From assembly GCA_016186325.1 (NCBI GenBank), contig JACPLW010000012.1, forward strand, positions 18,644 through 82,643: DNA of 64,000 bases, read 5' to 3'. Shown piece after piece: positions 2,803 to 64,000 of this stretch. The translations under genes and the position numbers were made by a program. The stretch is from Parcubacteria group bacterium. Its GTDB lineage: Bacteria; Patescibacteriota; Minisyncoccia; UBA10092. A model generated the notes under the pieces. It was not told the DNA's origin. It saw only the letters and a list, made by a program, of their open reading frames with translations, and did no database searches. The first letter of the stretch is position 1. Each line of letters opens with the position of its first letter.

Positions 2803-4693
2803 AATTTCTATCGCTCAAATTGAACCGGAAGAAATTCTCCTGGACAAAGAGTCGGTATCAAAGTTAGAAACGCCTTTAGAAAAAACCCGTGGAGCTATAA
2901 TTTTTTTTGTCGCTTTCATTATTCTGTCATCGTTTTTAAGCAGGGCTTTTTGGTTGCAAATTTGGCAAGGCGATTATTATGCGAGTCGCGCAATTAGAAA
3001 CAATGTCCGTCTTTATCCCATTCAGGCGCCGCGCGGCCTTATTTACGATAGGAATAATAAACTGCTTTTGGATAACGCGGCTAATTTTAACCTGCTTCTT
3101 GTTCCAGCTGACATTCCAAAAAAAGACGAAGCCTTGAAAAATTGGGTAAAAAAACTTTCCGAAATTTCAAATAAACGTGAGGATGAAATTTTCGATTTTC
3201 TCAAAACAGTAAACGTCGGGTCAACGGAGCCGGTTTCATTTTCTTCAAATTTAAATAAAGATGAACTGATCGCAATAGAAACGAAATTGAGAGACGCTCC
3301 CGGTATTTTTATCAGACGAGAAACAAAGCGCGACTATTTTGAAAATTACTATTTTTCTCATTTACTGGGATTCTTGGGAAAAGTTTCTGGCGCCGACCTT
3401 AAGTCCGATTCTTTTTACACGCCGCTAAATTTTATCGGTAAAACCGGACTTGAACTGCAATATGAAAACGATTTAAGAGGAAAGCCCGGTAAAACTGCCG
3501 TCATTGTGGATTCCGATAACACGGTCTTAAATATCTTAACCGCCGAAGAACCGATGCCGGGCAATAATTTAATTTTAAGCATAGATAAGGACCTTCAAAA
3601 ACTTTTAACCGACGCTTTGACGGAAAAAATGGCGGATACGATTTCGCCAGCCGCTGCCGCCGTTATAATAAATCCGAAATCCGGAGAAATTTTATCGCTT
3701 GTCAGCCTGCCTTCGTTTGACAGCAATCTTTTCAATAGCGGTCTAAGCGATAAAACATATGGCGCTTTGGCAAGCGATAAAAAGCAGCCGTTTTTTAATC
3801 GCGCTATCGGCGGTACCTACGCTTCCGGTTCAACGATAAAACCGTTTATGGCCGCCGCGGCTTTAAACGAAAATATTGTTTCTCCAGAATATAAAATTGA
3901 CGACACCTTAGGCTACATAACTATTCCCAACCAATATGACCCCGATATATCTTATATCTTTCGTGACTGGAAAGCGCACGGATTTGTTGATATGCGCCGC
4001 GCCATTGCCGTATCGGCCAATGTTTATTTTTATGTAATCGGCGGCGGTTATAAAAATATAAAAGGACTGGGAATTGACAGGATTGATAAATATTTTAAGC
4101 TTTTTGGATTTGGATCGTCTCTTGGCATTGATCTGCCGGGTGAAACTAATGGGCTAGTGCCAAATCCTGCTTGGAAAAAATCCTCAAAAAATGAAAGCTG
4201 GTTTACCGGCGATACTTACAATGTTTCCATCGGACAAGGCGATGTTTTAATAACACCTCTTCAGCTTGCTGCGGCGATTTCGGTAATTGCAAATAACGGA
4301 ACGCTTTACAAGCCAAAAATTGTTTCAAAAATAACCGATAATAATGGAAATACTATAGGAAAATTTGAGCCGGAAATAATAAGAAACGTTAATATCGATA
4401 AGGAGAAGCTTCAAATCGTAAGAGAGGGAATGAGAGGAGCCGTAACAGAAGGTTCGGCATATCTTTTAAACGATCTGTTAATTGAGGTGGCGGGAAAAAC
4501 CGGTACCGCCCAAGTAACCAATACGTTTAGAAAAACCAACGCTTGGTTTACCGGTTTTGCTCCTTATGACAACCCGGAAATTGCTCTGGCTATAGTTATT
4601 GAAGGCGCCGGCGAAGGCTCGTCGGCAGCCGTTCCGGTTGCTAAGAGAGTTTTTGAGTGGTATTACAACCAGAATTATGATAAACTAAAATGA
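2780..4693 (+). CDS. mrdA: penicillin-binding protein 2 (peptidoglycan D,D-transpeptidase)
   Basis: 637 aa; N-terminal TM, dimerisation domain, transpeptidase motifs 'ASGSTIKPF' (SxxK), 'SAN', 'KTGTAQ'. Confidence 0.9.
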   Translation: MKMGKKSKISIAQIEPEEILLDKESVSKLETPLEKTRGAIIFFVAFIILSSFLSRAFWLQIWQGDYYASRAIRNNVRLYPIQAPRGLIYDRNNKLLLDNAANFNLLLVPADIPKKDEALKNWVKKLSEISNKREDEIFDFLKTVNVGSTEPVSFSSNLNKDELIAIETKLRDAPGIFIRRETKRDYFENYYFSHLLGFLGKVSGADLKSDSFYTPLNFIGKTGLELQYENDLRGKPGKTAVIVDSDNTVLNILTAEEPMPGNNLILSIDKDLQKLLTDALTEKMADTISPAAAAVIINPKSGEILSLVSLPSFDSNLFNSGLSDKTYGALASDKKQPFFNRAIGGTYASGSTIKPFMAAAALNENIVSPEYKIDDTLGYITIPNQYDPDISYIFRDWKAHGFVDMRRAIAVSANVYFYVIGGGYKNIKGLGIDRIDKYFKLFGFGSSLGIDLPGETNGLVPNPAWKKSSKNESWFTGDTYNVSIGQGDVLITPLQLAAAISVIANNGTLYKPKIVSKITDNNGNTIGKFEPEIIRNVNIDKEKLQIVREGMRGAVTEGSAYLLNDLLIEVAGKTGTAQVTNTFRKTNAWFTGFAPYDNPEIALAIVIEGAGEGSSAAVPVAKRVFEWYYNQNYDKLK

Positions 4694-4797: not shown

Positions 4798-5265
4798 ATG
4801 GCAAATCAAACTTACTTAAGCCTTGAAGGCATTGAGACGCTTAAAAAAGAGCTTCAAGAACTAAAAACAAAAAAACGGCAAGAAATTGCCAAGCGCCTTC
4901 AGGAAGCTAAAGACTTGGGCGATCTTTCTGAAAACGCGGAATATTTTGAGGCCAAGGAAGCACAATCGTTAAATGAGTCGCGAATTGGAGAACTGGAAGA
5001 ACTTTTAAAAAACGCGGTTATTATTGAAGAACCCAGTGAAGAGAACACTGTTAATATTGGCTCAACAATTGAGGTAAAATCTACTACCAACGGCATAGAA
5101 CGTTTTAGTATTGTCGGTTCTGCCGAAGCCAGGCCACAAGAAGGAAAAATTTCAAATGAATCGCCGTTGGGACGCTCTTTTTTAAATCGGAAAATAGGTG
5201 AGGAAGTAGAAGTTAAAAGCCCCGGCGGAACTACGAAATATAAAATAATTAAAATTGAGAAATAA
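4798..5265 (+). CDS. greA: transcription elongation factor GreA
   Basis: 155 aa; N-terminal coiled coil 'LTLEGIETLKKELQELKTKKRQEIAKRLQEAKDLGDLSENAEY' and FKBP-like C-terminus typical of GreA. Confidence 0.9.
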   Translation: MANQTYLSLEGIETLKKELQELKTKKRQEIAKRLQEAKDLGDLSENAEYFEAKEAQSLNESRIGELEELLKNAVIIEEPSEENTVNIGSTIEVKSTTNGIERFSIVGSAEARPQEGKISNESPLGRSFLNRKIGEEVEVKSPGGTTKYKIIKIEK

Positions 5266-8863: not shown

Positions 8864-8870
8864 TTTTTTA
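8834..8870 (+). terminator. intrinsic terminator (CCCCGTCCCGC aact GCGGGACGGGG + T7)
   Basis: 11-bp perfect stem followed by TTTTTTT read directly. Confidence 0.8.
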
Positions 8871-10697
8871 TTTTAAATTATAAACAAAAATTGAATACCC
8901 AATTTTTACTACCGGCTTATACTGGTCAAGCCACGTATAAGAGCGTTCATTGTAAGAACAGGGGATTTTGTCGGCTTTGCAGGCGCCGCTGTAAATTGTC
9001 GCTGAAACTGCGAGCCACCCGGTTTGCGGCGCTTCGCGGTTGTAAGATTCAATCTTAACATTTTTAATATAATACTCCGCCGGAGCGCCGGAAAAATAAT
9101 CCATCTTAATTTCTTTGATATTATTTTTTTCTATAAAATCCGCTAGGCGCAAAATATCTTGCCCCCAATCTAAATTTGAATCAACAACCCATTTATGGCC
9201 ATTATTCGGTCCGCCGGCAATCTCGTTAAAGTAAGCAAGAAATGACGGATAAATAAAAAACACCGACAGAATCGCCCACGCGAAAAAAACTAAAATAACG
9301 AAGCTCCTCTTTATTCTTTTCCAATATAGACCGAATAGTTGCCAAAACCCGGAATAATTAGGAATTCTTTCGGTTATTCCTCCCTTAATCCAATTAGTAA
9401 TTTGACGCGCCGTGAGAGCGTAAATAAAAGGCAGTGTCGGCAGAATATGGCGTACGCCGATATTTAGCCGCGAATTTATTGAAAAAGCCCAATAAACTAT
9501 AATAATGGAAATCATTCCCGTTTCCACGGGGTTATTTTTTATTAAATCAATAAAATCCCGCCACCAGTGTTTTACCGATCGTTCACGGCAATGTCGAAAG
9601 CAGTGGTTTAACGCTAAAAGTAATCCAAAAACAACCATTAAAATATAAGCGAGCGGTTCTTTAATCAGATAAACGACGGGAAAATACGAGCGCGCTCCTT
9701 CCGCTGAAACTTCGCCAAGATAATAAGTCGTATTACCTCCTTCAGAACGCTGTAAAACCATCAAAAATCCTAAGAGATAGTGGCCCCAAGCTCTTAAATA
9801 TTGATTTGATGAAAGCCAAATATTAAAATCAGCAAGTGGCTTAATACCGAATGTGCTTAGTATAAATGTTGTGTCAACGGTTTGTTTTGAAGGCGGGTAA
9901 TTATAAATATGGAAGGCGTACACGGCGCCCACAAGTAAGAAAGATATAATCAAAGCAAAAATAAAACCTCCGACATACTTTTTTATCCAAAACCATTTTT
10001 TGTTTTGAATAAAAGCGTAAATTAAAGCAATCAACCCAAAAATCGGCATTAAAAGAAAGGTTGAAAATTTTGTAAGAAGCGCCAAACCAAGAACAACCCC
10101 GAAAACCCACAGATTTCTTTTTGTCGGCGTTTTAAGCCAGTGATATAAATAGTAAAAACTGATGAAAAACGCGGCTGCGGCGGCAACATCGGTGGTCACA
10201 AGCCGCGTATGCGCCAAAACGGTAGGGGAGAGAGAATAAAAGGCTAAAGCGATAATGCCGGCTAAATTACCCCACAATTCTTTGGTAAATCGCCAAATAT
10301 AAAATCCTAAAAGTAGCCCTATTAAAATTATAGGAATCCTCCCGTATCTCATCATTTTTTGCGCGTCGTTTCCGGAGTAATACAATAGATCGTTGCCAAA
10401 AGTAACATCTGTCTGCCAAGCCGGCGTTCTATTGATGTCCGACATCAATAGTGTGTTCCAGCCGGGACTTTGGTATGGAAATTTGATGTTTAAAAGTAAA
10501 AGCGGCAAGGCCGACAAATCTTTTACGAGAGGCGGATGTTCCGGATTTAGGCGCATATCTTGTTGCGTCAAATAAGAATAACCCGCCGGCAAGTGGATTC
10601 TTTCATCGTAATTGGCATTGTCATTCCACATGCTGGTTACGGCCAGCGCAGCAAAAACCACTAAAAGAATAAAAGCAATAATGTTGACAATTTTCAT
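8868..10697 (-). CDS. glycosyltransferase family 39 (PMT/ArnT-like) polytopic membrane protein
   Basis: 609 aa from ATG at 10697 (ORF-track N-terminal extension to 10844 overlaps tRNA-Leu on opposite strand and is rejected); 'DERIHLPAGYSYL' DE-motif after first TM, >10 TM, soluble C-terminal domain. Confidence 0.7.
   Translation of the reverse strand: MKIVNIIAFILLVVFAALAVTSMWNDNANYDERIHLPAGYSYLTQQDMRLNPEHPPLVKDLSALPLLLLNIKFPYQSPGWNTLLMSDINRTPAWQTDVTFGNDLLYYSGNDAQKMMRYGRIPIILIGLLLGFYIWRFTKELWGNLAGIIALAFYSLSPTVLAHTRLVTTDVAAAAAFFISFYYLYHWLKTPTKRNLWVFGVVLGLALLTKFSTFLLMPIFGLIALIYAFIQNKKWFWIKKYVGGFIFALIISFLLVGAVYAFHIYNYPPSKQTVDTTFILSTFGIKPLADFNIWLSSNQYLRAWGHYLLGFLMVLQRSEGGNTTYYLGEVSAEGARSYFPVVYLIKEPLAYILMVVFGLLLALNHCFRHCRERSVKHWWRDFIDLIKNNPVETGMISIIIVYWAFSINSRLNIGVRHILPTLPFIYALTARQITNWIKGGITERIPNYSGFWQLFGLYWKRIKRSFVILVFFAWAILSVFFIYPSFLAYFNEIAGGPNNGHKWVVDSNLDWGQDILRLADFIEKNNIKEIKMDYFSGAPAEYYIKNVKIESYNREAPQTGWLAVSATIYSGACKADKIPCSYNERSYTWLDQYKPVVKIGYSIFVYNLK
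10429..10451. repeat. 23-bp perfect palindrome CTATTGATGTC-C-GACATCAATAG inside GT39 gene, encodes 'LLMSDINR' in frame
   Basis: Read directly; same palindrome core recurs twice in the second GT39 gene at 12161-12213. Confidence 0.8.
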
Positions 10698-10712
10698 AAA
10701 ATATGATAAATT
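10684..10712 (+). promoter_or_regulatory. promoter of tRNA cluster: TTGACA-N17-TAAATT
   Basis: TTGACA 10684-10689, TAAATT 10707-10712, 11 nt upstream of tRNA-Leu. Confidence 0.55.
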
Positions 10713-10723
10713 AATAATGAGGT

Positions 10724-10808
10724 GCCGGCGTGGCGAAATGGCAGACGCGCTCCGCTTAAGATGGAGTGGGCAACTCCCGTGTCGGTTCAAGTCCGACCGC
10801 CGGTACCA
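10724..10808 (+). tRNA. tRNA-Leu (anticodon TAA), long variable arm, CCA encoded
   Basis: Acceptor GCCGGCG/CGCCGGT, anticodon loop CU-UAA-GA, T-arm GTCGGTTCAAGTCCGAC, 3' ACCA; folded by hand. Confidence 0.85.
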
Positions 10809-10829
10809 ATCTTTAAAAAACCAAGTGGC

Positions 10830-10904
10830 GCCGCCGTGACGCAATGGTAGCGTAGCGGCCTTTTAAGCCGAGAGTTGGAGGTTCAAGTCCTCCCGGCGGC
10901 ACCA
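10830..10904 (+). tRNA. tRNA-Lys (anticodon TTT), CCA encoded
   Basis: Acceptor GCCGCCG/CGGCGGC, anticodon loop CU-UUU-AA, T-arm GGAGGTTCAAGTCCTCC. Confidence 0.8.
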
Positions 10905-10916
10905 TCTTCGAATAGT

Positions 10917-10991
10917 GGGCCCGTAGCTCAACGGTAGAGCAGCCGGCTCATAACCGGTAGAGCGGAGGTTCAAATCCTCCCGGGCCCACCA
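10917..10991 (+). tRNA. tRNA-Met (anticodon CAT; elongator or tRNA-Ile2, not initiator)
   Basis: Acceptor GGGCCCG/CGGGCCC with paired 1:72, anticodon loop CU-CAU-AA, no GGG/CCC in anticodon stem, T-arm GGAGGTTCAAATCCTCC. Confidence 0.8.
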
Positions 10992-11023
10992 CTCCTTCGC
11001 TCAATGAGCTGCGGAGTGCAAGC

Positions 11024-11060
11024 ACCCCCCAACGCGAATGCGGTGGGGGACTTTATTTTT
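11024..11060 (+). terminator. intrinsic terminator after tRNA cluster (CCCCCCAACGC gaat GCGGTGGGGG + TTTATTTTT)
   Basis: Hairpin plus T-rich tract read directly. Confidence 0.7.
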
Positions 11061-12684
11061 ATGGAACTATTAAAATCGGGGTGTTTAAATAAATAAATTC
11101 AATTTTACCTTCCGATAATTTTTTATTTAATTCGTGAAGAAACGTTAAATCAAAATAAAGGGGAACAATAACGACATTATTTCTCTCTAATTTTATTTTA
11201 TCAACCCCGTTAGAAGTCGACAAGTCGTCAGACGCTGTCGGCGTCTTACTTCTAACGGGGTCAAATTCATCTGCTTTTACATAATTTACATTAGATTTTC
11301 CATAACTAAGAAAATATACCGTTTGCGCTGAAACTGGTAATCCGTTGCTTGTCTCTTTATCATCAGCGTGCCAAATAACATATTTAAAAACACTGTCCGG
11401 CAAACTATTTAAGTAGTTTGCGATTTCAATCTGGCCTTTGGAAAAAGCATCGGCAGTGCGAATATTTGAAGCCCACCTGATAAAATATTTGTTATATTCC
11501 GCGAATCCTATAAATAATAAAAAAACGATTAGCAATACAAAAATCTTTTTTTTAGTTCTTAAAAGCTGATGGTGATTCAAATATTTTTGGATTTTTTCCC
11601 AAACCCAAACTAATCCGATACCGGCAAAAACCATTGCCGCCGGCATAGAGCCTAAAGCTCGCAAAGCGTGAGGGTTGCCCTCGGTTGATAAAACATTTGG
11701 TAAAAGAAAAATCAAAAGCCATGCCAAAAGGAATTTTTCACCAAACCCCAAACGCTTAACACTAATACAGAATCCTATAAGAAACAGAATACCGACCAGC
11801 CAAAATAATTGCGGCGAACCGGCAAAATTATGCCGCCAGTTCAGGTCGCCGACAATATTAAACATTCCTATGGTTGCCACAGTGCTTATGGCCGCTGATT
11901 TGAGAGGACTATCTGCCGAAAAAATTGAAACTTGGCCGCTTCTTCCAAAAAAATCGCCCGGATTATTCAGAAAGTAAATTCCTATTGGCAGAGCAACAAT
12001 AAAAGCCGTAATCGTGAAAATCGCAAATCCCGGCCACATATTTTTTGCTCGGTGTTTTGTAAGATAAAGTATAAAAAATACCGCGGCTAAAACGGGCGCA
12101 AAGCGATATGAAATATAGGTATAAAACCCAAGACCAAACAAAGCTCCCGCTAAAACCAACATAATTATCGATGTCCGACATCGATAATTATTGATGTCCG
12201 ACATCGATAATTTAAATCCGCGTATTAAAAAATAGAAAGACCAGATTAAAAATGGCAGCATCAGGCCGGCGCGAAAACCCATACGGCTGAAATTTACGGC
12301 CCAAAAACCAACGGCCATAAAAAAACTTGAGGCCAGCGCTATTTCAACGCTAAATAGCAACTTAGTTAGAAAAAATAGCCCCAAAACTGCTAAAACGCCC
12401 GCTATAGCAGGGAATAGTCTTAGAACCCAGGATTCTATGCCAAAAAATTTTATTGCTAAAGCGTCAAGCCATATTATCATTCCTTCGCGGCCATTGTTAT
12501 TGGTATAAAAAACCTTAAATTCCCCGGTTTTAAGCGACAATAAGGCGTCGGCGCCATTCATCGCCTCATCTTGATAAAGGCCCGGCGGTATAACGTCAAA
12601 TTGCCAGAATCTGAAAAAAACCGCGATAGCGATAATTAACAATAAAATCGCCGCGTGCCTATGTTTATAAAATAATTTTGTCAT
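11059..12684 (-). CDS. glycosyltransferase family 39/83 (ArnT/PMT-like) polytopic membrane protein, paralog of 8868-10697
   Basis: 541 aa; 'YQDEAMNGADAL' after first TM, many TM helices; carries three in-frame repeat insertions (see repeats). Confidence 0.7.
   Translation of the reverse strand: MTKLFYKHRHAAILLLIIAIAVFFRFWQFDVIPPGLYQDEAMNGADALLSLKTGEFKVFYTNNNGREGMIIWLDALAIKFFGIESWVLRLFPAIAGVLAVLGLFFLTKLLFSVEIALASSFFMAVGFWAVNFSRMGFRAGLMLPFLIWSFYFLIRGFKLSMSDINNYRCRTSIIMLVLAGALFGLGFYTYISYRFAPVLAAVFFILYLTKHRAKNMWPGFAIFTITAFIVALPIGIYFLNNPGDFFGRSGQVSIFSADSPLKSAAISTVATIGMFNIVGDLNWRHNFAGSPQLFWLVGILFLIGFCISVKRLGFGEKFLLAWLLIFLLPNVLSTEGNPHALRALGSMPAAMVFAGIGLVWVWEKIQKYLNHHQLLRTKKKIFVLLIVFLLFIGFAEYNKYFIRWASNIRTADAFSKGQIEIANYLNSLPDSVFKYVIWHADDKETSNGLPVSAQTVYFLSYGKSNVNYVKADEFDPVRSKTPTASDDLSTSNGVDKIKLERNNVVIVPLYFDLTFLHELNKKLSEGKIEFIYLNTPILIVP
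11206..11260. repeat. 55-bp GC-rich palindromic element with CCCCGTTAGAAGT/ACTTCTAACGGGG termini, in frame in GT39 gene (encodes 'PVRSKTPTASDDLSTSNGV')
   Basis: Near-identical to tandem copies at 24924-25041; flanked by TCAA direct repeat. Confidence 0.8.
12161..12213. repeat. tandem 23-bp duplication of palindrome ATCGATGTCCGACATCGAT inside GT39 gene (encodes 'SMSDINNYRCRTSIIM')
   Basis: Units 12161-12183 and 12184-12206 differ at one base; period 23. Confidence 0.8.
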
Positions 12685-19284: not shown

Positions 19285-19749
19285 TTATCTTCTAACGGGC
19301 CCCGGTTCTGAATAGGGGATTCTTTTTTCTGAATTCTCTAACGCGGTCTTAACATGATGCATCATGTTTTCAGGTAATTTTTTTATCGGGAACCATCGAA
19401 GGTCGTCGCATTTATCCGGCTCGTTTATTCTAACTTCTCCAAACCATTTTTTACACTTAAAAAATAAATCCAACCTTTCTCCGGTTTCATCGTGTTTTGT
19501 GCGATACATAGTATGAACCAGTATTAGATCTTTTGGGTTAATATCAATCCCTAATTCTTCTTTCATTTCCCTTACTAATCCACCGATAGGCAATTCTCCG
19601 GCTTCCACATGGCCAGCCGGAACAGAATACCAGCCATCATAGTAACCAGAACCTCGCCGTCGTCCAAGCAAAATTTCTTTTCCTTTTCGAAGGAACAAAT
19701 AAACCGCCGGCACTGCTTTATTTCTTTCTTTTGATATTTTTAAATCCAT
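19285..19749 (-). CDS. NUDIX hydrolase
   Basis: 154 aa; Nudix box 'GHVEAGELPIGGLVREMKEELGI'. Confidence 0.85.
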   Translation of the reverse strand: MDLKISKERNKAVPAVYLFLRKGKEILLGRRRGSGYYDGWYSVPAGHVEAGELPIGGLVREMKEELGIDINPKDLILVHTMYRTKHDETGERLDLFFKCKKWFGEVRINEPDKCDDLRWFPIKKLPENMMHHVKTALENSEKRIPYSEPGPVRR

Positions 19750-24302: not shown

Positions 24303-24917
24303 ATGAAATACGAACTGCCAAAACTGCCATATTCTTACGATGCACTAGAACCTTACATTGACACTAAGACAATGGAAATCCACCATGGAAAACACCATCA
24401 GTTTTATATTGATAAGCTCAACGCTGCTTTGGAAAAATATCCCGATTTAGCCGATAACCCCGCCCTTAAGCTTAAGAGCGGGGATAAAAAACTGGAGGAG
24501 CTTATAAAAGACCTGCCCAATTTAACTATGGTAGACGAAGCCGACAAAAAAGCGATTCATAACAACGGCGGGGGACACATAAACCATTCGTTTTTCTGGC
24601 AAATTATGGCGCCGCAAAAAGAAGTTGATGAAGCATTGTTTGAAGAGATTAAATCAACTTTCGGTTCGCCGGAAGAATTTAAAAAAATATTCAGCAACAC
24701 CGCCGCCACCCACTTTGGCAGCGGATGGGCTTGGCTGGCGCGCGACGAACAAAATAAACTTCAAATATATTCATTGCCAAATCATGATTTTCCTTATTTG
24801 AAAGGCCATCAGCCTCTTATAGTACTTGATCTCTGGGAACACGCCTATTATCTAAAATACCAGAACCGCCGGGCCGAATATATAGAAAATTGGTGGAATG
24901 TTTTGAAGTTATTATAG
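24303..24917 (+). CDS. sodA: Fe/Mn superoxide dismutase
   Basis: 204 aa; 'LPYSYDALEPYID..MEIHHGKHH', 'DLWEHAYY'. Confidence 0.95.
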   Translation: MKYELPKLPYSYDALEPYIDTKTMEIHHGKHHQFYIDKLNAALEKYPDLADNPALKLKSGDKKLEELIKDLPNLTMVDEADKKAIHNNGGGHINHSFFWQIMAPQKEVDEALFEEIKSTFGSPEEFKKIFSNTAATHFGSGWAWLARDEQNKLQIYSLPNHDFPYLKGHQPLIVLDLWEHAYYLKYQNRRAEYIENWWNVLKLL

Positions 24918-24923
24918 GGTTGG

Positions 24924-25041
24924 CCCCGTTAGAAGTCCGACAAGTCGGCAGACGTCGTCGGCGTCTTACTTCTAACGGGGTTGACCCCGTTAGAAGTCCG
25001 ACAAGTCGGCAGACGCCGTCGGCGTCTTACTTCTAACGGGG
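24924..25041. repeat. two tandem 57-bp GC-rich palindromic elements (CCCCGTTAGAAGT..ACTTCTAACGGGG) separated by TTGA
   Basis: Copies 24924-24980 and 24985-25041 differ at one base; second copy abuts the -35 TTGACA of the downstream promoter. Confidence 0.85.
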
Positions 25042-26491: not shown

Positions 26492-26586
26492 CCCGTTAGA
26501 AATCTATCTAGATTTTTCTTAATTATAAATACAATAGTAGTTGCTAATCTTAATTTAGTTTTATCTAATATAAAATTTCTAACGGG
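26492..26586. mobile_element. 95-bp AT-rich cassette with 12-bp TIRs CCCGTTAGAAAT/ATTTCTAACGGG between def stop and fmt start; flanking direct repeat ATGAA (start codon duplicated)
   Basis: TIRs read directly; same architecture at 29372-29471, 46605-46702, 49122-49218. Confidence 0.6.
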
Positions 26587-29371: not shown

Positions 29372-29471
29372 CCCCGTTAGAAATCTAATAAATCTTATGA
29401 GATTTAGCAGCATGTTTATATTTTATATTTAAACTATGTTTGATTGGTTAAAAAATAAATTTCTAACGGGG
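29372..29471. mobile_element. 100-bp AT-rich cassette with TIRs CCCCGTTAGAAAT/ATTTCTAACGGGG upstream of rpmA; flanking direct repeat TTGA
   Basis: Read directly; member of the CCCGTTAGAAAT TIR family. Confidence 0.6.
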
Positions 29472-46604: not shown

Positions 46605-46702
46605 CCCGTTAGAAATTTAATAAAATTATAATTAACTAAATTATTATTAAGCAATTGTTTTTGCAATGCGATATTAAATGAGAAAAATAGATTTCTAACG
46701 GG
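46605..46702. mobile_element. 98-bp AT-rich cassette with TIRs CCCGTTAGAAAT/ATTTCTAACGGG between scpA stop and scpB start; ATGAAT duplicated on both sides
   Basis: Upstream ATGAAT contains scpA TGA stop; downstream ATGAAT is scpB M-N. Confidence 0.65.
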
Positions 46703-46704
46703 AT

Positions 46705-47508
46705 TCATAAATTATCGCTGACTTTTTTTACTTTAATCTCTCCGAATAATTTATCTTGGGAAATTTCTAAAACTCTTTTTCTAAAAAGCATTAAAATCGC
46801 AATAAACGCCAAAACAACATTAATCTTTTCTGCTTTTGAGGTCGAACCACTTGTGGTGAGCAAAGTCGAACCACTTGTGGTGAGCAAAGTCGAACCACTT
46901 GTGGTGAGCAAAGTCGAACCAGAAATTTCGTTAAATGACGCTTCGGCCGCCGTACTTACTCTGCCCATAAGTTCTTCAATTTTTTCTTCCAAACTCATTA
47001 TTCTAACAAGGCCTTTTTCTTCCAATTTTTCAATCTGGGGCAGAGTCTTTAAAAATAGTTCGTAGATGTTTTTGAGATCTTCTATCGTAATACTTTTAGG
47101 CGGATAGAAGGTGGTTTGTAGGTTTAAAAAGTATTCTCTTGAAAAATAAGAATTGCGGCCCTTTGTCCATTTTCCCAGCATCTTCGCCATTGTTTTGATT
47201 TCCTGATACGCCTTTAACCGATTTTGCAGGTCTTTTATATCATCTTCTTCTTCAACGCTTAAAACAAGATTGGGCAAAAGCGAACGCGATTTTATAAGAA
47301 TCAGGCGGCTTGCAACAACCAAAAAATCAGCAAGTATTCTTTGATACTCGCTAGATACATCGCTTTTTATTTTTTTTAGATATTCCAAAAACTGATCCGT
47401 AACCTGTGCCAAAGAAATTTCGCCTATGGCCATCTTTTTTTCTTCTATTAAAGAAATTAGAAGATCTAACGGACCGGTAAATTTTTCTAAACTGACTTTA
47501 TATTCCAT
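46705..47508 (-). CDS. scpA: segregation and condensation protein A
   Basis: 267 aa; 'FTGPLDLLISLIEEKK'; C-terminal region contains a tandem octapeptide repeat. Confidence 0.85.
   Translation of the reverse strand: MEYKVSLEKFTGPLDLLISLIEEKKMAIGEISLAQVTDQFLEYLKKIKSDVSSEYQRILADFLVVASRLILIKSRSLLPNLVLSVEEEDDIKDLQNRLKAYQEIKTMAKMLGKWTKGRNSYFSREYFLNLQTTFYPPKSITIEDLKNIYELFLKTLPQIEKLEEKGLVRIMSLEEKIEELMGRVSTAAEASFNEISGSTLLTTSGSTLLTTSGSTLLTTSGSTSKAEKINVVLAFIAILMLFRKRVLEISQDKLFGEIKVKKVSDNL
46841..46922. repeat. 24-bp tandem repeat x3.4 (GTCGAACCACTTGTGGTGAGCAAA) inside scpA, encoding (TTSGSTLL)x3
   Basis: Perfect copies at 46841, 46865, 46889 read directly. Confidence 0.85.
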
Positions 47509-49121: not shown

Positions 49122-49218
49122 CCCGTTAGAAATTTATTTAAATAAATAATGTTAATTTTTAATCAATATCCGACATTTGGCATATCCCGCAGACTAATAT
49201 TTATAGATTTCTAACGGG
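49122..49218. mobile_element. 97-bp AT-rich cassette with TIRs CCCGTTAGAAAT/ATTTCTAACGGG abutting aspS start; ATGAA duplicated
   Basis: Read directly. Confidence 0.6.
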
Positions 49219-56184: not shown

Positions 56185-56247
56185 TAACTTTGGTATTCTT
56201 TCTTTATAGACTGTAATTCTTGCTATAGCAAGAATTAGTGACCTTAA

Positions 56248-56802: not shown

Positions 56803-56982
56803 TATATTTTCTATTTTTATTATAGTATGTAGTTTTTGCTATAGCAAGTTTTAGTGTTCTTAGTAGTAACTACTAATTAAAAGGTAAAAATAAAAGCGCG
56901 TTGCCGCGCTGAAGAACAGATTTTGATAAAAAAAACCCCACACCTAATATGAGTGTGGGATACAAAAAATATTAAATTACTT

Positions 56983-59204: not shown

Positions 59205-59540
59205 GGCAGGTGAAAGGAAACTATAAGCCGGATTCTGTCCCCGCAACTGCGGGGGACGATTATCTATCTGAGCTCTGCATTGCTGCCGAGCTTTAGCCCT
59301 CATAACGAGGTTGCACCCAGTAAGGATTTAGCCGTTTCACTTCCATATTTCTATGGAATTCACCCTGCAAATGCGGGGTGCCTTGCGCCTTTCGGCGCCC
59401 GGCGTCGCTGTTCGCACCTCTCGCGTTATTTATTTCGCGGCGGGTCGTTAACCCGTACGCTTTTCCCCCGCAACTGCGGGGTGGTGTCCGGACTTTCCTC
59501 CCCTCGATAAACTCAGGGCAATCGTCCGTTTCCTTAATTA
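59205..59540 (-). ncRNA. rnpB: RNase P RNA (bacterial type A)
   Basis: Minus strand shows CR-I 'GGAGGAAAGUCCGGAC' and CR-V 'ACAGAAUCCGGCUUAUAG' (P4 halves complementary), 3' tail 'GUUUCCUUUCACCU' pairing with 5' 'AGGAAAC'. Confidence 0.85.
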
Positions 59541-63651: not shown

Positions 63652-63774
63652 TTGTCCCGGCGATAACTACTTTCCCCGACCATCGAGGGCCGAGTATCAT
63701 CGTCGACACGGTGTTTCACTTCTCTGTTCGGAATGGGAAGAGGTGGTACCACCGCGCTGTTGTCACCAGGACAA
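63652..63774 (-). rRNA. rrf: 5S ribosomal RNA
   Basis: Minus strand 'GUCCUGGUGACAACAGCGCGGUGGUACCACCUCUUCCCAUUCCGAACAGAGAAGUGAAAC..' matches 5S consensus. Confidence 0.9.
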
Positions 63775-63847
63775 CGGGGTTAATGGTGAGCTTTGTCGAA
63801 CCATTAATTTCAGGTTTCAAAATTAAAAACTCATGCTCATATAAGGG

Positions 63848-64000
63848 ATGAGTAGATTTCGCTTTATTAGTACGACTTGGCTCAACGCGTTACCGCGCTT
63901 ACACCTGTCGCCTATCAACCTCGTAATCTTCGAGGAAGCTCTTGGGACTTTCGTCCCATCGATACCTAATCTTGGAGATTGCTTCGCGCTTAGATGCTTT
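63848..64000 (-). rRNA. rrl: 23S ribosomal RNA, 3'-terminal fragment (continues beyond window)
   Basis: Minus strand 'AAAGCAUCUAAGCGCGAAGC..GGUUGAUAGGCGACAGGUGUAAGCGCGGUAACGCGUUGAGCCAAGUCGUACUAAUAAAGCG' matches 23S domain VI/3' end. Confidence 0.85.

Follow-up and report, generated by a model that had tools for sequence, protein, structure and literature searches.

The stretch of DNA studied here, 64,000 nucleotides of contig JACPLW010000012.1 from a Parcubacteria group bacterium (assembly GCA_016186325.1; hereafter the window), carries on its minus strand two neighbouring genes for membrane glycosyltransferases, each of which holds in-frame copies of a 23-bp palindrome that very probably belongs to a dispersed repeat family of the REP (repetitive extragenic palindromic) type. 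Going by the names of the closest homologues, the host genome is judged to be that of a member of Candidatus Azambacteria / Parcubacteria, within the candidate phyla radiation (CPR). The first gene, GT1 (8868..10709, minus strand), encodes a 613-aa PMT_2 (GT-C, GT39/ArnT-like) membrane glycosyltransferase and hosts a single palindromic unit, and the second, GT2 (11059..12684, minus strand), encodes a 541-aa PMT_2 membrane glycosyltransferase and hosts a double one.

Results

Both proteins pass the Pfam PF13231 (PMT_2) cutoff of 26.1 bits, GT1 with 47.8 and GT2 with 38.7, and both have the DE motif of the first extracytoplasmic loop, as NYDERIH in GT1 and YQDEAMNG in GT2. We place the start of GT1 at the ATG at 10709, the probable choice because the longer mechanically called open reading frame (ORF; 8868-10844) covers tRNA genes, three of which (Leu-taa, Lys-ttt, Met-cat) lie on the opposite strand between the two genes, at 10724-10991. 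GT1 has 3461 homologues, the closest of which are named Azambacteria or Parcubacteria GT39. A sequence-only reading of the window had taken the two enzymes for GT39 paralogs; they pass the same Pfam model, though a BLASTP comparison (E = 1.1) detects no recognisable paralogy between them, and their unit sites are non-homologous positions, both in loops. The GT2/GT1 gene pair itself (8868-12684) is kept far beyond Azambacteria, in homologues at 40-50% identity (loci L110-L144; L numbers denote loci fetched from other genomes).

The GT1 unit (10429..10451) is a perfect 11-1-11 palindrome, CTATTGATGTC-C-GACATCAATAG, that matches the dispersed consensus ACTATTGATGTCsGACATCAATAGT exactly and is translated from the minus strand, with 10428-10451 encoding residues 87-94, LLMSDINR, in frame. 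The GT2 element (12161..12212, minus strand) consists of two 23-nt units, ATAATTATCGATGTCCGACATCG and ATAATTATTGATGTCCGACATCG (12161-12206; period 23, one mismatch), and a 6-nt partial third unit, ATAATT; an asymmetry common to both units identifies the pair as a direct repeat, and 12161-12191 forms a perfect 15-1-15 palindrome by itself. Residues 159-174 of GT2, LSMSDINNYRCRTSII, are encoded in frame by 12163-12210: in gene order the first unit gives LSMSDINN and the second, one frame shifted, gives YRCRTSII. The sequences, positions and translations of the palindromes had thus been read correctly from the sequence alone, as had the observation that the core reads MSDI on either strand, the sole open frame of each strand giving LLMSDINS.

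The palindrome signal exceeds chance. There are three occurrences of the 13-mer core GATGTCCGACATC in the window, whereas shuffled sequence gives a mean of 0.39 matches even with up to two mismatches allowed, none of 100 shuffles reaching the observed count, and perfect palindromes with arms of at least 11 nt number nine in the window against 0-1 in 20 shuffles. The units are predicted to form stable RNA hairpins (-27.9 kcal/mol, z = -6.0, and -20.1 kcal/mol, z = -4.4). A relaxed search of the window for variant units returned nothing beyond the three known copies, which lie in two genes and are all intragenic, and an Rfam scan of the window found tRNAs, RNase P RNA and rRNA only, the palindromes matching no known RNA family.

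Mapping the segments onto the predicted topology, as the sequence-only reading had proposed, here with AlphaFold2 models, places both in loops of lowered confidence. In the GT2 model (mean predicted local distance difference test score, pLDDT, 78.9) the repeat site is covered by a helix at 134-162, a coil at 163-169 and a helix at 170-186, and the pLDDT there is 66 against about 91-93 in the flanks. The site is probably a short cytoplasmic loop between the fourth and fifth transmembrane helices, a topology derived from the modelled helices, counted back from clearly positive loops, together with the positive-inside rule; sequence comparison with solved GT-C structures gave only a distant AglB match that was of no use for topology. 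In the GT1 model (mean pLDDT 84.1) residues 87-94 fall in a 24-residue coil between helices 60-72 and 97-111, with pLDDT 66-73 against about 91-94 in the flanks, and this coil would lie in the first extracytoplasmic loop because it follows the DE and EHPPL motifs.

The window's unit is one of a dispersed family. An exact-pattern scan for ATYGATGTCCGACATCRAT over 185,579 species-representative genomes returned 64 stretches, about 40 of which are single, chance-like hits in unrelated bacteria; nine loci fall in the metagenome-assembled genome (MAG) CAZBVM01, whose 91.9-kb contig bears a GT1 orthologue, four in the MAG CAZKLP01, and single loci in other Azambacteria, Nomurabacteria and Patescibacteria MAGs. 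The nine loci of CAZBVM01 hold at least 18 copies between them, and the four of CAZKLP01 hold six. The copies have in common a 25-bp consensus, ACTATTGATGTC[C/G]GACATCAATAGT, often lengthened to AAACT...AGTTT, so that the full unit, (AA)ACTATTGATGTC-C/G-GACATCAATAGT(TT), is a near-perfect 12-1-12 inverted repeat of about 25-29 bp. Many copies are doublets a few bases apart, and inverted doublets, with arms of up to 24 nt, occur at L011, L027, L033, L043, L051 and in many of the alleles at the GT2 site. The central C/G was considered as a marker of orientation and dropped, being uncoupled from the side on which a companion motif lies.

That companion motif, found after many units, is a module of the form AGTTTT-GGGGATAA-GG-TGGGGATAA-GTGATATTGACA, made of two DnaA-box-like 9-mers (some exactly TGTGGATAA) and then a -35-like hexamer (TTGACA). 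It is present at L036 (3957-3995 and 4853-4892), L016, L037, L043, L057, L145 and L151, and at the GT2 sites of L073, L074 and L079, and where it falls within KsgA, a GT4 enzyme or GT2 orthologues it is read in frame, giving FGDKVGI(T/S); it was not found in the window. The module might serve as a mobile promoter or for the binding of DnaA.

Many copies of the unit itself are intragenic: 8 of the 18 in CAZBVM01 lie inside long ORFs with recognisable functions. Across the related genomes, in-frame copies occur in TsaD (L002 and L059, same site), KsgA/RsmA (L037, L051 and L026, same site), a GT4 glycosyltransferase (L057) and RsmE (L008), an in-frame doublet in a 794-aa polytopic membrane protein (L011), and a unit at one and the same site of an LTD-domain protein in L036 (7527-7557), L145 (6139-6169), L146 (6273-6297) and L148 (6455-6485), two of these four hosts having a transposase gene, described below, that is flanked by a different palindrome. 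KsgA was set aside as a clean example of insertion, the sequence of the B. subtilis KsgA structure having a variable loop of similar length at that position.

The peptide LLMSDIN(S) recurs because it is the product of the only open frame of the unit, on either strand, the other two frames of each strand holding TGA or TAG. Copies that sit in a closed frame have the stop mutated, as in the second GT2 unit, in KsgA of L051, in L011 and in the transposase gene; the transposase gene and the L051 copy of KsgA (IDVGHQY) have TAT in place of TAG, and the second GT2 unit has CGA in place of TGA, where TAT CGA TGT CGG ACA TCG reads YRCRTS. The replacement of consensus ATTGAT by ATCGAT in GT2 is thereby accounted for, since it removes the stop TGA in the shifted frame. 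The sequence-only reading had noted that a duplicated tract of 46 bp is not a multiple of three and had put the maintenance of the frame down to the surrounding context; the two units do lie in different frames, and what keeps the gene open is a net gain of 33 nt together with the stop-removing T-to-C change rather than context as such.

Orthologues allow the GT2 site to be followed across species. We surveyed 80 metagenome loci, cutting out the DNA between conserved flanks. The segment between LIWSFYFL.RG and F.IAGILFGLGFYTYISYRF has about six residues (FRxKKI) in distant homologues and is hypervariable in length and sequence in Azambacteria orthologues. An empty allele of 15 codons, LKGFRLQKYIYFIIA, is present in L092, L104, L107 and L110, and all distant GT2 homologues are empty too, as FKGFREKKILNFIIS and similar; most Azambacteria alleles are filled. 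That of the window has 26 residues against 15 in the empty allele, an excess of 11 codons (33 nt), and that of the closest relative, L033 in CAZKLP01, is a perfect inverted doublet of the window's unit. The other palindrome cores at this site are GGTGTCCGACACC, GAAGTCCGACTTC, GACGTCCGACGTC, GACATCCGATGTC, GAGGTTGAACCTC, ATCGATTCTTAGAATCGAT, GATTCCCGGAATC and AGATTTCGGAAATCT. Perfect inverted repeats with arms of 9-24 nt (at least 9 nt being required) occur in 24 of the 35 distinct filled alleles, represent at least eight core sequences, and each reach p <= 0.005 against shuffles of the same allele. Several of these variants recur elsewhere in the fetched loci, and the palindrome type of L148 fills the GT2 site of L072, L074, L093 and L114.

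Empty and differently filled alleles interleave in a neighbour-joining tree built with the site masked, which suggests that fillings have repeatedly been gained, lost or replaced. Set beside the empty allele of L104, that of L080 carries a 24-nt insertion (CTATTGATTTACGAAATCAATAGT) that looks clean, with no target duplication, as would be expected of IS200/IS605-type chemistry. The pair of units in the window may have arisen by tandem duplication or may be a REP doublet.

At the GT1 site, distant homologues read W..DINGQW..FG and all Azambacteria are about 10-11 residues longer, with PLTADSSRTP in most and LLMSDIN(S)RTP in a subset. The perfect palindrome is common to the window, L040 and L105 and is partly decayed in L067, L075 and L113; L080 has a different palindrome, GACATCGGATGTC. 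The in-frame insertion originally proposed for both genes thus finds its filled and empty alleles in GT2, whereas simple insertion is not demonstrated for GT1, where close orthologues have a non-palindromic segment of equal length, and the GT1 copy may have been inserted, may have replaced another segment or may preserve the ancestral state of an older insertion. Whether the variants in GT1 agree with those in GT2 of the same genome was also considered; in general they do not, and CAZBVM01, for example, combines the window's type in GT1 with a GGTGTC type in GT2.

Related genomes have the unit on both sides of a transposase gene. The ORF at 4118-4834 of L036 (contig 18 of CAZBVM01) matches Pfam Y1_Tnp (IS200-like) with 34.8 bits against a cutoff of 23, and units lie upstream of it at 3937 and 4098 and downstream at 4834 and 4957; L145 and L151, from two other assemblies, have the same layout. 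The gene also holds one in-frame unit (STIDVGHQY; L036 4319-4337, L145 2796-2816, L151 4178-4190), which sits in a variable loop and is missing from more distant homologues. The protein is about 225-230 aa long and has more than 4000 homologues, many labelled Azambacteria or Patescibacteria transposases, and its HUH (NHYHLLL) and YIHLNP motifs are invariant in an alignment of 12 homologues. In six assemblies the order of neighbours is the same: a mechanosensitive (MS)-channel protein, the transposase, a protein of 170-190 aa and the large LTD-domain protein.

The flanking palindrome type tracks the transposase lineage. The window's unit flanks the gene in L036, L145 and L151, ACTATCGATTCT-T-AGAATCGATAGT flanks it on both sides in L148, CCGATAGGTTTC-C/G-GAAACCTATCGG on both sides in L149 and L150, and TCACTATTGATTCT-A-AGAATCAATAGTGA lies upstream of it in L146 and L147, so that four palindrome types accompany orthologues of 55-86% identity in the same synteny.

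The window holds other repeats and features. Within GT2 a second palindromic element (11197..11259, minus strand), with terminal inverted repeats CCCGTTAGAAGT / ACTTCTAACGGG, encodes PVRSKTPTASDDLSTSNGV in frame in the C-terminal domain; it is the same phenomenon, outside the 23-bp unit family. It is present only in the query and P0002, being absent from 44 of 46 aligned orthologues; the region of the element, residues 475-494, has pLDDT <50 in the AlphaFold2 model, and its predicted RNA fold has -35.5 kcal/mol (z = -8.7). This element is one of a second palindromic family, 54-98 nt long with terminal inverted repeats CCCGTTAGAA...TTCTAACGGG, found at 11197-11259, 24917-25040, 26492-26586, 29373-29470, 46605-46702, 49122-49218 and 19290-19299, with 15 half-sites in the window against about 0.1 expected; its intergenic copies include 24917-25040, and a superoxide-dismutase-like ORF is followed by two copies in tandem. 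At 46841-46921 a 24-nt tandem repeat, GTCGAACCACTTGTGGTGAGCAAA, has at least three exact overlapping copies. A perfect 12-0-12 palindrome, TAATTCTTGCTATAGCAAGAATTA (56214-56237), inside a 651-aa ORF, with a degenerate copy about 600 nt away (56815-56862), may be another in-frame palindromic element. Rfam also places a class A RNase P RNA at 59208-59537 (minus strand; 106 bits, just above the gathering score), a 5S rRNA at 63655-63770 (minus strand) and the 3' end of a 23S rRNA at 63847-64000 (minus strand).

Discussion

By combining the palindromes of one window with their counterparts in related genomes, our analysis makes it highly likely that the 23-bp palindromes represent a family of REP-type elements in Candidatus Azambacteria, belonging to a system of the REP/RAYT (REP-associated tyrosine transposase) type. 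The likeness to Rickettsia palindromic elements (RPEs) that had been drawn from the sequence alone is borne out, since in related genomes the unit is scattered through different genes as well as between genes, and since the segments are missing from distant orthologues; the analogy can now be sharpened, REP/RAYT being the better-fitting family because the unit flanks a Y1 transposase gene.

The mechanism that we regard as likely is modelled on well-characterised systems of the REP/RAYT and IS200/IS605 types. A RAYT-like Y1 HUH tyrosine transposase, fixed in the chromosome, would recognise the hairpin of the unit in single-stranded DNA and would cut and rejoin it, copying single units and doublets to new places with no target duplication. 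Because the genomes are gene-dense, many surviving copies would sit within genes, where a copy would survive only in a tolerant loop, with a net length that is a multiple of three, and in a readable frame, that is, either the open frame LLMSDINS of either strand or another frame from which TGA or TAG has been mutated away. Both outcomes are found in the window, the GT1 unit and the first GT2 unit lying in the open frame and the second GT2 unit having its stop mutated. From the analogy with these systems we infer that the transposase moves the units and that the genome to which the window belongs still has one; the peptides that the units encode would be tolerated rather than useful.

REP and REPIN elements with their RAYTs are known from E. 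coli, Pseudomonas and Stenotrophomonas (Nunvar 2010 PMC2817692; Bertels & Rainey 2011 PMC3116915, PMC3337134; Ton-Hoang 2012 PMC3333891), where REPs flank the transposase gene, the type of REP differs from one RAYT to the next and the RAYT behaves as a fixed single-copy gene (PMC3337134; PMC2817692; PMC3333891). The Azambacteria system resembles them in its short dispersed palindromic units, often in doublets, in the palindromes that border its Y1 HUH transposase gene on either side and are of a type particular to each transposase lineage, and in the conserved chromosomal neighbourhood of a transposase that is not multicopy. It differs in its host, a CPR bacterium, in a companion module of two DnaA-box-like 9-mers beside many copies, and in units that are near-perfect odd-length palindromes, the orientation of which, including the inversion of flanking units, is unreadable.

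Several observations weigh against this assignment. Neither an extragenic copy of the unit nor a homologue of the transposase was found in the 64-kb window, so that the link between the two rests on related genomes. The Azambacteria transposase is divergent: that of L036 scores 37.4 bits with the NCBIfam RAYT model NF047646, below the cutoff of 80, and comparison with solved RAYT/IS200 structures gave no significant match, the best being ISDra2 TnpA (E = 0.7) around the HUH motif. No conserved asymmetric tetranucleotide, such as the GTAG or CGTC tag of known REPs, is present in the consensus of 38 oriented copies, and about 40% of copies in the best-sampled genome are intragenic, against a small minority in the known systems. 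At the GT1 site most orthologues carry a non-palindromic segment of equal length, and a neighbour-joining tree intermixes palindromic and non-palindromic states. Identity between copies at orthologous sites is 88-100%, against 47-86% in the 150-nt coding flanks, and at the site in the LTD protein changes in one arm are matched in the other, which preserves a 15-1-15 palindrome although amino acids are altered. Simple insertion followed by drift does not explain this kept symmetry, for which selection on the hairpin, arm-to-arm correction or repeated re-insertion are possible causes.

The last of these points lead to a bolder proposal, which we hold to be doubtful, namely that intragenic copies are not passive and that their palindromic symmetry is actively maintained at fixed sites in essential genes across deeply diverged species. 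It is prompted by copies that exceed their flanks in conservation, by paired arm changes that alter amino acids and by a GT2 loop that holds at least eight hairpin types. If it were true, either the Y1 transposase would repeatedly rewrite the sites, by site-specific re-insertion or conversion, or the hairpins would have been co-opted, in which case they would be intragenic regulatory or structural signals in CPR bacteria.

The same conservation and the same paired substitutions would be expected if the hairpins were locus-specific functional structures in mRNA or DNA kept by selection, for instance as a translation pause between transmembrane helices, as a processing or stability signal, or for protein binding, their likeness to dispersed repeats being secondary. 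The great predicted stability of the RNA hairpins and the palindromic character of the GT2 loop in most distinct filled alleles, despite their differing sequences, point the same way. We nevertheless consider this improbable: the very same unit is found in genes unrelated to one another, between genes and on the flanks of a transposase gene, the empty GT2 alleles of several Azambacteria and of all distant homologues mean that the gene can dispense with the hairpin, and the two sites in the window would lie on opposite sides of the membrane.

Less probable still is that the palindrome is a scattered site for a DNA-binding protein, be it an operator or a partition-type or replication-linked site, with intragenic copies being incidental. 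A near-perfect 12-1-12 inverted repeat, strongly conserved from species to species, would suit such a site, as would the two DnaA-box-like 9-mers and TTGACA hexamer that many copies in related genomes adjoin. Against it, related genomes have different palindromes in the same places, tracking the transposase lineage in the manner typical of REP/RAYT pairs, the units often form doublets or tandem arrays, the window lacks the companion motif and no cognate regulator was identified. A conserved MSDIN peptide motif of functional importance to the glycosyltransferases, with the palindrome as a by-product of its codons, can be dismissed despite the recurrence of LLMSDIN in the two enzymes and in some of the GT1 orthologues, for alignments of GT1 and GT2 orthologues rule it out: MSDIN is not conserved where the palindrome is lacking, the segment is missing from distant orthologues, most GT1 orthologues read PLTADSSR instead, the site in close GT2 orthologues is filled by unrelated peptides, every one of them palindrome-encoded, and the same peptide, being the product of the only open frame of the unit, turns up in TsaD, KsgA, GT4, RsmE and others.

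Returning to the REP/RAYT-type assignment, we note that intragenic REPs as such are already published. The part of the report of Di Nocera et al. (2013, PMC3733652) available to us describes them in Opitutus terrae, Rickettsia conorii, Thauera and others, as singles and dimers in known genes that gain roughly 10-30 extra residues, some genes being hit twice. The Azambacteria units likewise occur as singles and doublets within genes and add residues, and GT2 is hit twice. In contrast, the families in that part of the report carry GTAG or CGTC tags and their intragenic copies are exceptional, and no mention is made there of many palindrome variants recurrently occupying a single orthologous site. 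It also presents RPEs as the classic case of in-frame palindromic insertion, and with these, as portrayed in the same text, the Azambacteria units share an in-frame position within conserved proteins encoded by a small genome, to which the palindromic repeats contribute extra segments of loop. The Azambacteria units differ in flanking a Y1 transposase gene and in their CPR host.

As to size and machinery, the classic RPE-1 is much longer, about 100-150 bp, and we know of no transposase tied to it. The resemblance to IS200/IS605 elements lies in a transposase of the same Pfam family (Y1_Tnp) with a weak match to ISDra2 TnpA around HUH, in hairpins as recognition elements, and in the lack of a target duplication between L080 and L104. 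The differences are that the Azambacteria gene is seemingly immobile, having the same neighbours in six assemblies, that the repeats far outnumber the gene, and that the units are not the left and right ends of an insertion sequence. The literature that we searched yielded no paper tying RAYT or REPIN to CPR, Parcubacteria or Azambacteria, an absence that applies to the searched literature only.

Genomes of CPR bacteria, or Patescibacteria, are usually described as streamlined and repeat-poor. If the palindromes are what we take them to be, such genomes can still hold an active or recently active population of palindromic repeats, and REP/RAYT-type units would be a concrete source of lineage-specific loop insertions in CPR proteins, in housekeeping and envelope functions alike. 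For annotators and for those who predict structures, short low-confidence loops such as LLMSDINS, IDVGHQ and YRCRTSI would then be recognisable as repeat-derived. The filled, empty and differently filled alleles at the one GT2 site would offer a natural data set on the origin, turnover and symmetry of REPs.

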